Source: Escherichia phage ELT1. From it: a stretch of 64,000 nt of DNA. The notes under the pieces are model-generated. The model worked only from the letters and a program-made list of their open reading frames with translations. It was not told the DNA's origin and ran no database searches. The stretch is taken from the sequence record MZ892903.1; one strand, written 5' to 3'. Positions 7,476 to 45,609 of the stretch are shown piece after piece (positions within the stretch are counted from its first letter, which is position 1; each line of letters starts with the position of its first letter). The translations under genes were made by a program, and so were the position numbers.

Positions 7476-8162
7476 TTAAAAATCGTGGGTAGAATCAGCT
7501 TCAAGAGCTACTACATAATTCGCATGTTCACCTTCAAATTTAGCAGCACCTTGTTTACCTTTTGCCCAGAGCAGAAGTTTATAATTTCCTGGTTGCATTT
7601 TCATATTTGCCATATTGATAATGAAATTAAATGTATTTTCACCATCATAATCACCAAGAGTCAAAGAATATTTAACACGAGTCAAAGCAGAATCTTCTAC
7701 TTTATTAAAACCGTTAATTACGATTTTACCTTCTTTTACCGTGATAGCAATTGTATCAATCTGCAGACCACGAGATACACGCAACAGTTGTTGAAGGTCT
7801 TCAGCTTTAATTTCAGTAACAACAGATGCTACCGGGAATGGAATTGGTTTATTAGGAGCAACTACTGTACTCGGATCGGCTGCTGGCCAAAAAATTGTTG
7901 AACGAGCATCAGCAATTTTAATATTTCCATCTTCTGACTGGGAAATTTCTGCATCATCATTAACTAGAGACAGAATACCGAGAAAACCGTTCAAATCGTA
8001 AATTGCTACATCAAAATCAATAACGTCAGAAATATTTGCTTCCGCATAAGTTGTACCATTAACTGCGCGAGTCATAATAAATTGACCGGATTTAAGCATA
8101 ATACCGGAGTTAATAGTAGCGAAATTTTTCAAAATATTCAGTGTATCTTTAGACAGTTTCAT
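7476..8162 (-). CDS. 45: sliding clamp
   Basis: 228 aa as in T4 gp45; synteny. Confidence 0.9.
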   Translation of the reverse strand: MKLSKDTLNILKNFATINSGIMLKSGQFIMTRAVNGTTYAEANISDVIDFDVAIYDLNGFLGILSLVNDDAEISQSEDGNIKIADARSTIFWPAADPSTVVAPNKPIPFPVASVVTEIKAEDLQQLLRVSRGLQIDTIAITVKEGKIVINGFNKVEDSALTRVKYSLTLGDYDGENTFNFIINMANMKMQPGNYKLLLWAKGKQGAAKFEGEHANYVVALEADSTHDF

Positions 8163-32843: not shown

Positions 32844-33425
32844 CTAACCGAGCTTTTTAGTTAATTCATTCCAATGTTTTCTGCACAAAGAAACATAAAT
32901 TTCATCACCAATACAGATTTGATTACCTTCTTTAACTGGTGTTCCATCTTCCATTAATCGAGCTGTCATAATCGCTTTTTTACCGCAATGACAAACTGCC
33001 TTTAGTTCAATAAGTTTATCTGCAATCGCCAAAAGTTCTTTAGAACCTTCAAATAATTTTCCAGCGAAATCAGTCCTTAGACCATAAGCCATAACAGGAA
33101 CATTATATGTATCGACAATTCGGCTTAATTGATGTACCTGTTCAGTTTTTAAAAACTGAGCTTCATCTACAAATACACAATGAATATCTTTTTGTGCTTC
33201 AGCCCATTTATAGAACTCAAAAATATCCATATCATCCGTAATAATATTCGCTTCCTGTTTAATTCCAATGCGAGAAACGACTTCACAGACAGAATCGCGA
33301 GTATCAATAGCAGGCTTAAGAACTAATACACTCATTCCGCGTTCTTTATAATTATGTGCAGCAGTCAAAAGAGAAGCAGATTTTCCAGCATTCATTGCTG
33401 CATAAGTAAAAATTAAACTCGCCAT
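32844..33425 (-). CDS. tk: thymidine kinase
   Basis: 193 aa; P-loop GKS and TK Zn-ribbon cysteines. Confidence 0.9.
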   Translation of the reverse strand: MASLIFTYAAMNAGKSASLLTAAHNYKERGMSVLVLKPAIDTRDSVCEVVSRIGIKQEANIITDDMDIFEFYKWAEAQKDIHCVFVDEAQFLKTEQVHQLSRIVDTYNVPVMAYGLRTDFAGKLFEGSKELLAIADKLIELKAVCHCGKKAIMTARLMEDGTPVKEGNQICIGDEIYVSLCRKHWNELTKKLG

Positions 33426-33615: not shown

Positions 33616-33797
33616 AAGGAATTTATATAATCAATGAGTTCTTGTTCTTTATTATCAAATTCTTTGGAAAGTTCTTCATATTCATTTGCGCTAAAAGGAC
33701 CGCATTCATCACAAACTTTTTCCAATTCACTGTTTTTATCCATAACTTCGTGGATAAGAGAAAAGAGTTTGTCTTTTTGTTCTTTGCTTAGGCTCAT
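33612..33797 (-). CDS. small acidic helical protein (paralog family)
   Basis: 61 aa. Confidence 0.4.
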   Translation of the reverse strand: MSLSKEQKDKLFSLIHEVMDKNSELEKVCDECGPFSANEYEELSKEFDNKEQELIDYINSL

Positions 33798-33963
33798 ATA
33801 TTAATTTCCAGAAGTTTTAAAATAATTCGCTTTTGCTTAAATATTTCCATAGTTAAATGATCAGTATCTTTTTGACCAATTCCAATGGCAAAACCTTTAT
33901 TAGCAGCGAGTTCAATTAAATTATCAAGTTCACGTGACACTTCATATTGTAACTCAGAACTAT

Positions 33964-34191
33964 TCATTTCGGTTTACCTTCTTTAACGAAATCTGGATAA
34001 GGATAAAATCCCGAATAAAATCCTTCACATTTATGATTGATGCATCCTTTATTAGAACAATAGCACCAATAATCGAAATCACAAGCCATTTCATCGTTAC
34101 ATAAAGCAAAAACAACCGGCCATTTACACTTTTCACAATGGGCATTTTTAAGAATACTAGTTTGGCTCATAACCATGTAACCTTTAAGCAA
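33964..34191 (-). CDS. small cysteine-rich protein (probable zinc binder)
   Basis: About 11 Cys/His in 75 aa (CEKCKW...CNDEMAC...CYC...CINHKCEG). Confidence 0.4.
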   Translation of the reverse strand: MLKGYMVMSQTSILKNAHCEKCKWPVVFALCNDEMACDFDYWCYCSNKGCINHKCEGFYSGFYPYPDFVKEGKPK

Positions 34192-34394
34192 TATTCTTCT
34201 ACGTGCTGTTTACGACCTTTCTTATCAATAAAGGTATATTCAACGAATGTTCCAATATAATCTTTATCTACATCATGTGGACTATTAATTGGACATTTAG
34301 TACGGCAAATGCGTTCCCATTGACGAATAATTACTGCCTTATTCTTTGGGTCATACGGATGTGGATAATGTATATTCATAATAACGGTTCCCAA
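34167..34394 (-). CDS. hypothetical protein
   Basis: 75 aa ORF. Confidence 0.35.
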   Translation of the reverse strand: MGTVIMNIHYPHPYDPKNKAVIIRQWERICRTKCPINSPHDVDKDYIGTFVEYTFIDKKGRKQHVEEYCLKVTWL

Positions 34395-34843
34395 TCAACA
34401 ATCACAATTTCTAATTTAGAGGAATATGTATCTAAAATCCCCTCAATAATATCCCAGTTCCCTTTACCTATGCCTGCACCAATCCTAGGCATATAGATTG
34501 TAGGTTTAATCAGTTTATTTTCACCAAACTCATTTAATTCTAACATACAATTCATTAAAGCGGAATACTCAAAATTTGGCCCTGGTTGAAATTGAGTATA
34601 AAGGTTGAAGCAATACGCTTTATGAGTCCTAAAGTATTTTTCATAGACTGAGTAAGAACCAAGTTTAGTTACATCACCCCATTCAGTCTGTAGTTTATCA
34701 GCTTCCAGAATTTTAGGGAAAGCTTTGGTTAATTGACCTGCGACTCCAGCTTTCATCGTATGAAAACAATTGCATCCATGCGCAATATTTTTACCTTCAG
34801 CGAAAAGGGCGACAATATCGCCCTTGATATATTTTACAATCAT
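34376..34843 (-). CDS. macro-domain-like protein (predicted ADP-ribose binding or processing)
   Basis: 155 aa; GDIV...NIAHGCNC...KAGVAGQL and PRIGAGIGKG resemble macro-domain binding loops. Confidence 0.5.
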   Translation of the reverse strand: MIVKYIKGDIVALFAEGKNIAHGCNCFHTMKAGVAGQLTKAFPKILEADKLQTEWGDVTKLGSYSVYEKYFRTHKAYCFNLYTQFQPGPNFEYSALMNCMLELNEFGENKLIKPTIYMPRIGAGIGKGNWDIIEGILDTYSSKLEIVIVDWEPLL

Positions 34844-35187
34844 CTAGTACTCAATCCTCGATTATAAGAATCTACCAAACGGTCAACCATTGAATGACAA
34901 GCGGCTTTATCTTTCTCCTCCGCAACTGAACATTCTAAGGTATTCCACTTTTTAGCATATCGTTTTAATAATGTATCGTTTTTGTATCTGCTTGATTTAT
35001 CTCTTTCTCCGTCTTTATATGCATATATTAATTTCTGTGCAAATTCAGCTTGGCATGCTTTATTTTTCCCACAATAATCTGCCGCAGTGCGGTTTACATA
35101 TTCTCTAATTTCAGTATATGATGTATCTGCTGACGCAGAAGCAGAAAATGAAATTAATCCTATACATAAAACCAAAATTTTAGTCAT
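34840..35187 (-). CDS. secreted small protein (T4 vs position; identity uncertain)
   Basis: 115 aa with N-terminal signal peptide. Confidence 0.4.
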   Translation of the reverse strand: MTKILVLCIGLISFSASASADTSYTEIREYVNRTAADYCGKNKACQAEFAQKLIYAYKDGERDKSSRYKNDTLLKRYAKKWNTLECSVAEEKDKAACHSMVDRLVDSYNRGLSTR

Positions 35188-35725
35188 TTACTATTTCCAA
35201 AAGTTTATTATTTTTAAGGTAATTAGCCTTTTCTAGGACTTCAGAAGCATATTTAGAACCAGCTTTAACATTCCATCCCGAATTATAAGAGGATATTGCT
35301 TTTCTTATATCTCCCTTGTGTATATTTAACCAATAAGAAAGTTCAATGTACGCCCAGGAAGCTGAATTGGACCGTTTATTCAACATTCTTTTTATTTCAG
35401 CATCGGTCATATTATAACCAAGTTCCTTAACTCTTGCTCGCATAGTAGGCAAATAATTTTGGAACATTCCGTAGGCGTGATGCTTTGGTTTAGATTTTAA
35501 ATTAACTCCGCCAGAGCTTTCTTGCCATAAAATAGCAGCCATTATATGACCTAATCCGCTCTTGTGGATATTTTTATGTGTTTTATATTTTCCATCCTTA
35601 GAAAATTGTTCCCCGAATTGATACGCGTAACGCATGTTATCGAGTTGGACATTACTGAAAGTATGCTCGGAGCTATGTGCCATCATAGAAATGGCCAATA
35701 GACCAGCGAGTAGTGCTTTTCTCAT
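35180..35725 (-). CDS. periplasmic lytic-transglycosylase-like protein
   Basis: 181 aa; signal peptide; SLT-like motifs (WQESS, YGMFQ, YNSG). Confidence 0.5.
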   Translation of the reverse strand: MRKALLAGLLAISMMAHSSEHTFSNVQLDNMRYAYQFGEQFSKDGKYKTHKNIHKSGLGHIMAAILWQESSGGVNLKSKPKHHAYGMFQNYLPTMRARVKELGYNMTDAEIKRMLNKRSNSASWAYIELSYWLNIHKGDIRKAISSYNSGWNVKAGSKYASEVLEKANYLKNNKLLEIVND

Positions 35726-36221: not shown

Positions 36222-36250
36222 ATTATACCACAGTCAAGAGGAAAAGTAAA
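36222..36250 (-). promoter_or_regulatory. T4-type early promoter (TTTACT-N17-TATAAT)
   Basis: Consensus upstream of regB. Confidence 0.55.
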
Positions 36251-44156: not shown

Positions 44157-44232
44157 TGGTGCCTCTAGAAAGATTTGAACTCTCACCATTAACCTTAGAA
44201 CGATTATATGCTATCCATTACACTATAGAGGC
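44157..44232 (-). tRNA. tRNA-Arg (anticodon UCU), CCA encoded
   Basis: Manual fold: acceptor GCCTCTA/TAGAGGC, anticodon loop GTTCTAA, T-loop GTTCAAATC. Confidence 0.75.
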
Positions 44233-44889
44233 AATTAAATTATTTACAATATCTTCTTTATAAACTTCAGCATAATGAAGTTCATATATTTCCCATCCTA
44301 ATGATTTTATAATATCATGGCGTTCTTTATAATAAGGGGCCAAAATCTTTTTCTTAGGATTGGAGTAATGTTGGTTTCCATTAACTTCAATAATAATCTT
44401 TTTATCTATTAAAGCAATATCCGCGCAATACGCTCGGTTTTTAACCGGTTGGTATTCTTCAATAAATGAAATTCCGTTTTCTATTAATTTAGATTTCAAA
44501 AATTCACAAGGCACAGATTTAAATTTTGTATTTTTCTTCCAAGGATGTTTATCGGGGTTTTCATTCAACCATTTTTTCCGAGCATTAGATATTTTTATTC
44601 TAGATTCCTCAGAGTGTTCTCTACCTAATGAAGCGGCTGACCATTTTTGTCTAGTCTCTTCCGAAATTACTACAGGAACACCAGTCTTTTTAGATACAAC
44701 ATACTGGTTTAAATTACCTGAAGCTATACGTGCTTTATTCATTGCTGCAATGGCTGATTTAGAACTTTCTTTATACAATTCCAATTTAGGGTTGGATTTA
44801 CACCATCTAGTGTGGTTAGCCATCCATCCTTTAGGTTTATTAGAAATATCAAATTCCATATTACAATGTTTACAAATTCTCATTACCAA
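44218..44889 (-). CDS. homing-endonuclease-like protein with Zn finger, NUMOD3 motif and C-terminal DUF559/Vsr-like nuclease domain (segB position)
   Basis: 223 aa; CKHC...HTRWC; SEETRQKWSAASLGREHSEESRIKIS; C-terminal YCADIALID...IIEVNG...GWEIYELHY. Confidence 0.55.
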   Translation of the reverse strand: MVMRICKHCNMEFDISNKPKGWMANHTRWCKSNPKLELYKESSKSAIAAMNKARIASGNLNQYVVSKKTGVPVVISEETRQKWSAASLGREHSEESRIKISNARKKWLNENPDKHPWKKNTKFKSVPCEFLKSKLIENGISFIEEYQPVKNRAYCADIALIDKKIIIEVNGNQHYSNPKKKILAPYYKERHDIIKSLGWEIYELHYAEVYKEDIVNNLIASIV

Positions 44890-44957
44890 TTATCTCCTAT
44901 AAAATATAGGAGTATTTATTATTTGGATAGAGCACTTAATTTACTTCGTTTAAATTA

Positions 44958-45029
44958 CTGGCGCACTTGGACTCGAACCAAGATAAAGGAGTTAACAGCT
45001 CCCCGTAATAACCTTTATACGATGCACCA
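44958..45029 (-). tRNA. tRNA-like gene, anticodon GUU (Asn) by manual fold
   Basis: T-arm CTTGG-TTCGAGT-CCAAG, anticodon loop CTGTTAA, acceptor TGGTGCA/TGCGCCA; no encoded CCA. Confidence 0.5.
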
Positions 45030-45035
45030 TTTGTT

Positions 45036-45110
45036 TGGTGACCCTGGCTGGTTTCGATCCAGCTACCTATCAGTTATGAGCTGACAGCTCTCCCATTGAG
45101 CTACAGGGCC
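45036..45110 (-). tRNA. tRNA-Ile/Met (anticodon CAU), CCA encoded
   Basis: Acceptor GGCCCTG/CAGGGTC, D-arm TAGCTCAATGGGAGAGC, anticodon loop CTCATAA. Confidence 0.75.
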
Positions 45111-45116
45111 TTGATA

Positions 45117-45189
45117 TGCTGATTGACGGAATCGAACCGCCGACGTCCTCATTACAAGTGAGGTGCTCTACCTACTGAGCTAAATCAGC
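45117..45189 (-). tRNA. tRNA-Thr (anticodon UGU)
   Basis: Acceptor GCTGATT/AATCAGC, anticodon loop CTTGTAA, T-loop GGTTCGATTCC. Confidence 0.75.
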
Positions 45190-45196
45190 GAAATTA

Positions 45197-45283
45197 CGGA
45201 GGCGATAGGATTTGAACCTATGAGTCGCCGGAGCGACTGCCGGTTTTCAAGACCGGTGCATTAAACCACTCTGCCACGCCTCC
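45197..45283 (-). tRNA. tRNA-Ser (anticodon UGA), long variable arm
   Basis: Acceptor GGAGGCG/CGCCTCC, anticodon loop CTTGAAA, extra arm, T-loop GGTTCAAATCC. Confidence 0.75.
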
Positions 45284-45285
45284 AG

Positions 45286-45359
45286 TCTCCGTGGCAGGAT
45301 TTGAACCTACGACATTCTGCTCCCAAAGCAGACGCTCTACCAAACTGAGCTACACGGAG
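45286..45359 (-). tRNA. tRNA-Pro (anticodon UGG)
   Basis: Acceptor CTCCGTG/CACGGAG, anticodon loop TTTGGGA. Confidence 0.75.
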
Positions 45360-45369
45360 TAAATTAAAT

Positions 45370-45443
<74 letters not shown>

Positions 45444-45448
45444 AAATT

Positions 45449-45535
45449 TGGTGCGAGAAGTGGGACTCGAACCCACAAGGAAATCATTCCGCAGCATTTT
45501 AAGTGCTGTGCCTTTACCAATTTGACCATTCTCGC
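45449..45535 (-). tRNA. tRNA-Leu (anticodon UAA), long variable arm, CCA encoded
   Basis: Acceptor GCGAGAA/TTCTCGC, anticodon loop CTTAAAA, T-loop GGTTCGAGTCC. Confidence 0.75.
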
Positions 45536-45536
45536 G

Positions 45537-45609
45537 CTGGGAATAAAGGACTCGAACCTTTGCATCTAGCAGTCAAAGTGCTATGCCTTACCAACTTGGC
45601 TAATTCCCA
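45537..45609 (-). tRNA. tRNA-Gln (anticodon UUG)
   Basis: Acceptor TGGGAAT/ATTCCCA, anticodon loop CTTTGAC, T-loop GGTTCGAGTCC. Confidence 0.7.

Follow-up and report, generated by a model that had tools for sequence, protein, structure and literature searches.

The 155-codon ORF that spans positions 34376..34843 on the minus strand of the Escherichia phage ELT1 DNA analysed here (64,000 nucleotides of record MZ892903.1, hereafter the window) runs from ATG to TGA and is, by its sequence, the tk.4 (adfM) ortholog of a T4-like phage (Tequatrovirus). The encoded protein falls among the macrodomains of the TARG1/DarG/ALC1-like class. Probably, Tk.4 works as a free-standing macrodomain and orphan 'antitoxin' against DarTG2, de-ADP-ribosylating DNA by an active site of the SCO6735 type. 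The gene, its macro domain, annotated for about 20 years, and the anti-DarTG2 role, reported in 2025, are already known. Relative to published work the new points are modest, and concern the putative Gln-type site of Tk.4, the two subfamilies that go under the name of AdfM, and the K31-A32 allele.

An earlier note on this DNA had described a 155-aa ORF with macro-like sequence motifs, and had placed it between tk and vs. All the quoted strings are found in the translation, GDIV at residues 8-11, NIAHGCNC at 19-26, KAGVAGQL at 31-38 and PRIGAGIGKG at 119-128. The placement is likewise correct, and the order of genes matches the annotation of T4 and RB32. The relevant features are:

34376..34843, minus strand: coding sequence of tk.4 (adfM), 155 aa and the TGA stop; the product consists of one macrodomain alone
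34840..34843, minus strand: ATGA overlap of the vs stop and the tk.4 start, read from the sequence and the ORF coordinates
34376-34379, minus strand: ATGA overlap of the tk.4 stop and the tk.3 start, read from the sequence
32844-33425, minus strand: tk, from the ORF list, order as in the T4 and RB32 annotation
34840-35187, minus strand: vs, from the ORF list, order as in the T4 and RB32 annotation
35180-35725, minus strand: vs.1

The two ATGA overlaps have the same layout in T4 and RB32, and their occurrence at both ends of tk.4 indicates that the gene is part of a tightly packed, co-oriented array. DNA identity is about 98% over regB-vs.1-vs-tk.4-tk.3...tk, with the gene order of T4. Many Tequatrovirus genomes (JEP6, SG1, RB32, RB33 and T6 among them) match the 2.8-kb stretch around tk.4 at 98% identity, and in these the genes are annotated regB, vs.1, vs, tk.4, tk.3 ... 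tk. The T4 and ELT1 proteins are equal in length and share 153/155 residues (98.7% identity), and a 'macro domain protein' of phage BYEP02 is 100% identical to ELT1 Tk.4. Relatives of Tk.4 were detected by tblastn in 2733 phage records, and reside in Escherichia, Klebsiella, Salmonella, Pseudomonas, Vibrio, Acinetobacter and Aeromonas phages.

Two small ORFs, 33794-33967 (-) and 33964-34176 (-), lie between tk.2 and tk.3. Both are absent from T4 but present in RB32 (RB32ORF110c, 111c), hence the tk-tk.4 interval is variable among close relatives. The product of ORF 33964-34176 is Cys-rich (CEKCKW...CNDEMACDFDYWCYCSNKGCINHKCEG), and resembles a small zinc-binding protein. The vs and vs.1 proteins have signal-peptide-like N-termini (MTKILVLCIGLISFSASASA and MRKALLAGLLAISMMAHS, respectively), which is unexpected for Vs, since its annotation is that of a modifier of valyl-tRNA synthetase, a cytoplasmic enzyme. 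In T4, vs is the gene most strongly depleted in minimal medium (HIDEN-SEQ preprint, bioRxiv 10.1101/2025.11.20.689424). The window also hosts a cluster of 9 tRNA genes at 44157-45609 (-), for Arg, Asn, Met(CAU), Thr, Ser, Pro, Gly, Leu and Gln. T4 carries 8 tRNA genes and is not known to have a tRNA-Asn, and the tRNA-Asn(GUU) of ELT1 would be extra; the CAU tRNA is presumably a tRNA-Ile of the T4 type.

The best sigma-70-like site found by consensus scan lies upstream of regB:

36222..36250, minus strand: TTTACT, 17-nt spacer, TATAAT, with TG

It is a possible promoter of a regB-vs.1-vs-tk.4-... transcript. In the consensus scan of the region, the counts of promoter and terminator sites do not exceed those of shuffled sequence, and the 'early region' label assigned by the earlier note to the locus thus rests on what is known of T4. 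A 9-bp GC-rich hairpin at 34805-34825 (mRNA strand minus; AAGGGCGAU AUU GUCGCCCUU) sits 16 nt past the tk.4 start codon. The hairpin is identical in T4, RB32 and BYEP02, and its folding z-score of -1.6 is not significant. The tk.4 mRNA of T2 is reported to interact with the host sRNA ArcZ (2026 preprint).

The assignment of Tk.4 to the macro domains, made in the earlier note from motif resemblance, is borne out by diverse approaches, and the similarity greatly exceeds what chance would give. The protein matches Pfam PF01661 Macro with 25 bits, above the gathering cut-off of 22 (E 1.9e-5, profile positions 2-113/118). A family profile, built on an alignment of 70 Tk.4 homologs (identity 34-95%), retrieved solved macrodomains, namely BT1257 (E 8.8e-19), TARG1 (1.1e-15), SCO6735 (1e-14), M. 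tuberculosis DarG (5.8e-14) and Poa1p (1.8e-13). Structure prediction, which the earlier note had recommended as a check, gave an AlphaFold2 model with mean pLDDT 95.1 and pTM 0.90, in which Tk.4 adopts the three-layer alpha/beta/alpha macro fold. The Asn residue and the two Gly-rich ADP-ribose/phosphate loops are in place as well, the first Gly of loop 1 being Lys in the ELT1 allele. Both in structure and in sequence the nearest relatives belong to the ALC1/TARG1-like class (TARG1, DarG, SCO6735, Poa1p), not to the MacroD, viral or PARG classes. In sequence, the solved proteins nearest to Tk.4 are not DarGs but a Bacteroides protein that is uncharacterised and the ADP-ribose-1''-phosphate phosphatase of yeast, which counts against the reading of Tk.4 as an anti-DarTG2 enzyme. 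Matches of tk.4 orthologs to A1pp, the older name of macro, were reported already in a 2006 comparative paper (PMC1524935). No second macrodomain was found in the 64-kb window by the family-profile search.

Three segments of the protein make up the putative active site:

34736..34780, minus strand: first ADP-ribose loop, residues 22-36 (HGCNCFHTMKAGVAG), with H22, N25 and the GxG motif, which reads K31-A32-G33
34592..34606, minus strand: end of the central strand, residues 80-84 (NLYTQ), with Q84 where TARG1/DarG have the catalytic Lys
34454..34489, minus strand: second (diphosphate-binding) loop, residues 119-130 (PRIGAGIGKGNW), read from the sequence and aligned to TARG1 PRIGCGLDRLQW

Residues G23, N25, G33, A35, D49, Y82, T83, Q84, P119, I121, G122 and G124 are invariant across the 70 homologs, and H22, C24, C26, M30, G128 and W130 are conserved in at least 90% of them. 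N25 is equivalent to N22 of DarG, N27 of SCO6735 and N23 of PhiKZ gp104; the roles of the equivalent residues of loop 1 have been described (PMC9411070, PMC13309987). In profile alignments with TARG1, DarG and PhiKZ gp104 (hmmsearch, hhalign), Q84 aligns with K84 of TARG1 and K80 of T. aquaticus DarG, T83-Q84 falling on a Thr-Lys pair whose lysine is the catalytic one in TARG1/DarG, and G126 takes the position of the catalytic D125 of TARG1. In a MAFFT alignment of seven sequences (Tk.4, BT1257, TARG1, the two DarGs and PhiKZ gp104 among them) Q84 is two residues off the catalytic Lys. This register was set aside, because four independent HMM/profile alignments agree with each other, and keep the identities of F79/N80/T83 with the FNFPTK motif of DarG. 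Since Tk.4 lacks both the Lys of DarG/TARG1 and the Asp of TARG1, the chemistry of DarG is not simply transferable to it. SCO6735 has Gln85 instead of the lysine, locked in position by Asn27, and is dead when mutated to Q85A (PMC9411070). The matching of H22, N25, Q84 and G126 suggests that Tk.4 is SCO6735-like. The equivalence of Q84 to Q85 of SCO6735 is transitive, drawn via TARG1 and DarG, and through it Q84 and N25 would provide the pairing of a Gln in place of Lys and a positioning Asn. SCO6735 (5e3b) ranks 8th among the matches of the family profile, and did not come up in the search with PhiKZ gp104. K34, which positions DNA in SCO6735, would correspond, by numbering offset, to position 32 of Tk.4, occupied by Ala in ELT1 and by Ser in T4; only in the ELT1-type allele does a lysine, K31, sit beside this position.

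A genetic requirement for the gene against DarTG2 has been shown by others in T4. In the HIDEN-SEQ study (bioRxiv 10.1101/2025.11.20.689424, November 2025) tk.4 was the single significant hit when a T4 transposon library was challenged on E. coli carrying DarTG2. Clean knockout of tk.4 made T4 sensitive to DarTG2, and the study gave the gene its new name, adfM. The challenge of a deletion phage with DarTG, advised in the earlier note, has thus already been published. T4 lacking both adfA and adfN is still resistant to DarTG2 (PMC11825919), which fits the requirement for tk.4 on a DarTG2 host. Phage T5 is sensitive to DarTG2 (PMC11825919; HIDEN-SEQ preprint), and neither tblastn nor the family profile (E values up to 10) detected a homolog of the Tk.4 family in its genome, which provides a small consistency check on the anti-DarTG2 role of Tk.4. 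T5 has two ORFs annotated as Sir2, T5.102 and T5.105, the latter of 168 aa (7588-8094).

The residue that DarT2 ADP-ribosylates is thymidine, within TNTC motifs of single-stranded DNA. The earlier note had proposed that a phage macro domain could reverse host ADP-ribosylation. The genetics of T4 tk.4 on DarTG2 speaks for such a reversal, but the implied substrate is thymidine in DNA, not protein. In the judgement of the HIDEN-SEQ authors it 'seems likely' that ADP-ribose is taken off the DNA enzymatically (bioRxiv 10.1101/2025.11.20.689424). PhiKZ gp104 strips from DNA in vitro the ADP-ribose added by DarT2 (PMC13309987). SCO6735 cleaves thymidine-linked ADP-ribose on DNA, for which a water-mediated mechanism was proposed, and protects against DarT (PMC9411070). 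In the scheme we favour, DarT2 modifies thymidines of single-stranded phage DNA with ADP-ribose and blocks replication. Tk.4 most likely holds the ADP-ribose by its two Gly-rich loops, and most likely cleaves the bond between thymidine and ribose by hydrolysis, so that the DNA can be replicated again. The invariant Q84, fixed by N25, would position the distal ribose for water-mediated cleavage, and stand in for the Lys of DarG/TARG1. That Tk.4 would be a hydrolase, that DNA would be its substrate and that Gln would be central to the mechanism is what we infer by analogy; on the same ground Tk.4 probably works like SCO6735, not like DarG. Dead SCO6735 still blocks DarT by binding, and Tk.4 may thus contribute also in a non-enzymatic manner.

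The last observation can be taken further: Tk.4 might neutralise DarT2 chiefly as an inhibitor that binds the toxin, or by covering the modified DNA, with no need for catalysis. DarT is inhibited in vitro by each of the dead mutants SCO6735 Q85A, DarG K80A and TARG1 K84A, most strongly by that of SCO6735 (PMC9411070). Tk.4, however, lacks the C-terminal domain by which DarG binds DarT, and the strict maintenance of N25, Y82, T83, Q84 and the Gly loops in 70 homologs is what is expected of an active site rather than of a toxin-specific interface. A role confined to binding is hence quite unlikely. It is also unlikely, in our opinion, that Tk.4 is mainly a small-molecule enzyme akin to Poa1p, an ADP-ribose-1''-phosphate phosphatase or O-acetyl-ADP-ribose deacetylase which recycles soluble ADP-ribose derivatives. 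The protein matches PHROG 335 'phosphatase' at E 1.4e-64, and the T4 RefSeq entry for tk.4 reads 'phosphatase; contains A1pp phosphatase motif', but this label goes back to the former name of the domain and does not derive from an assay. Iyer et al. proposed that viral macro domains may favour soluble ADPr derivatives (PMC9503650). Distant homologs adjoin NAD-salvage genes in Acinetobacter phage B09_Aci05 and Vibrio phage Gary, but the T4 tk.4 locus has no such neighbours, and a metabolite phosphatase does not explain sensitivity to DarTG2, the sole recorded phenotype of tk.4. The genes next to the distant homologs encode nicotinamide phosphoribosyltransferase and ribose-phosphate pyrophosphokinase, which hints that some members of the family act in NAD/ADP-ribose metabolism, instead of or besides DNA de-ADP-ribosylation.

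Two further substrates deserve mention. TARG1 and SCO6735 also clear ADP-ribose linked to protein at Glu/Asp (PMC9411070), and T4 encodes three ADP-ribosyltransferases (PMC8120803), so that Tk.4 might reverse protein ADP-ribosylation, acting on the marks left by the phage enzymes Alt, ModA and ModB, or by a host defence transferase. No phenotype ties tk.4 to Alt, ModA or ModB, however. Macrodomains of the TARG1 class are not known to cleave the arginine-ADP-ribose linkage. Arginine is the residue targeted by Alt, ModA and ModB (PMC8120803), and T4 is reported to be still sensitive to CmdTAC, a system based on an mRNA ADP-ribosyltransferase (PMC11618068); a role on protein targets looks very improbable. 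The degradation of ADP-ribose-derived immune signals, such as the gcADPR of Thoeris, was the other function put forward in the earlier note. It found no support in this analysis, nor any genetic or biochemical link in the literature searched, and the closest relatives of Tk.4 are all de-ADP-ribosylating hydrolases or phosphatases, which makes signal degradation barely credible. De-ADP-ribosylation of DNA by Tk.4 is the reading we retain.

ELT1 Tk.4 differs from T4 Tk.4 only by the substitutions G31K and S32A, both of which fall in the GxG motif that belongs to ADP-ribose loop 1. At the DNA level the changes reside in a mosaic patch:

34739..34757, minus strand: 19-nt mosaic patch, gene nt 87-105 (codons 29-35), in which T4 G31-S32 is changed to K31-A32

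The patch accounts for 9/18 nucleotide differences from T4 tk.4, and none of 200000 permutations (0/200000) yielded differences as tightly clustered. The K31-A32 peptide is found unchanged in 42 phage records, T6, RB51, RB68, AR1, wV7, HY03 and PST among them; it must therefore be regarded as a natural allele and not as an artefact of sequencing. At position 31, 60/70 members of the family have Gly, and 3/70 have Lys. No donor of the patch was found among the alleles examined (JK45, ESh26). A S36G polymorphism, a few residues from the patch, distinguishes T4 stocks (PMC8573959). The published DarTG2 experiments in T4 concern the G31-S32 allele (bioRxiv 10.1101/2025.11.20.689424). One may speculate that phages recruited anti-DarT2 macrodomains at least twice, a Gln-type (SCO6735/BT1257-like) in T4-like phages and a Lys-type (DarG-like) in chimalliviruses, and that loop 1 is a hot spot of the arms race. 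We regard this scenario as rather doubtful. If true, the K31-A32 patch and S36G would be alleles that alter the substrate range, or the sensitivity to particular DarT2 variants.

T-even phages stack counter-defences to DNA ADP-ribosylation, AdfA and AdfN being directed against DarTG1, and Tk.4/AdfM against DarTG2. Tk.4 would be a textbook case of an orphan antitoxin-like enzyme in a phage. To specialists it may be of interest that Tk.4 lacks the catalytic lysine of DarG, and is, by analogy, probably SCO6735-like, and that natural alleles differ in the ligand-binding loop itself.

T4 Tk.4, or AdfM (anti-DarT factor macrodomain), shares with ELT1 Tk.4 the length, the position between vs and tk.3 and the ATGA overlaps, and differs in having G31-S32 instead of K31-A32. 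Among solved macrodomains, BT1257 of Bacteroides thetaiotaomicron (2fg1, 2afc) comes from structural genomics and has no known function, and as such carries no functional information for Tk.4. Yeast Poa1p (6lfq) is a metabolite phosphatase. Human TARG1/OARD1 (4j5r) relies on the dyad K84/D125, the counterparts of which are Q84/G126 in Tk.4. SCO6735 of Streptomyces coelicolor (PDB 5e3b) is, like Tk.4, a free-standing ALC1/TARG1-like macrodomain with Gln in place of the catalytic Lys, and the two have in common the Asn that holds the Gln, the preceding His and the Gly of the phosphate loop. In contrast to Tk.4, SCO6735 is a cellular protein; it is distant (profile E 1e-14), and its K34 and K89 are not clearly conserved in Tk.4.

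DarG proteins (T. aquaticus 5m31, M. tuberculosis 5m3i) differ from Tk.4 in several respects. They have a C-terminal DarT-binding domain, absent from Tk.4, the catalytic K80 where Tk.4 has the invariant Q84, and an adjacent darT gene, whereas the neighbours of tk.4 are vs and tk.3. DarG models were the only matches of Tk.4 in the PADLOC and NCBIfam libraries, and solely by their macrodomain part. Tk.4 scored 25.1 bits against a cut-off of 250 with the NCBIfam DarG equivalog NF048014 (profile positions 2-146/338), and matched positions 2-145/329 of the PADLOC model. Identification of Tk.4 as a DarG was therefore rejected, as the score is far under the cut-off, and the second domain, the Lys and a darT neighbour are all missing. 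PhiKZ gp104 (Cell Rep 2026, PMC13309987) is, like Tk.4, a phage protein made of a single macrodomain, active against DarTG2 and called by the identical name of 'AdfM'. Yet the two share about 20% identity, and gp104, which works within the phage nucleus, is of the DarG type, matching M. tuberculosis DarG at E 9e-25 and keeping both the FPTK motif and the catalytic Lys. The name 'AdfM' therefore covers two subfamilies of macrodomains.
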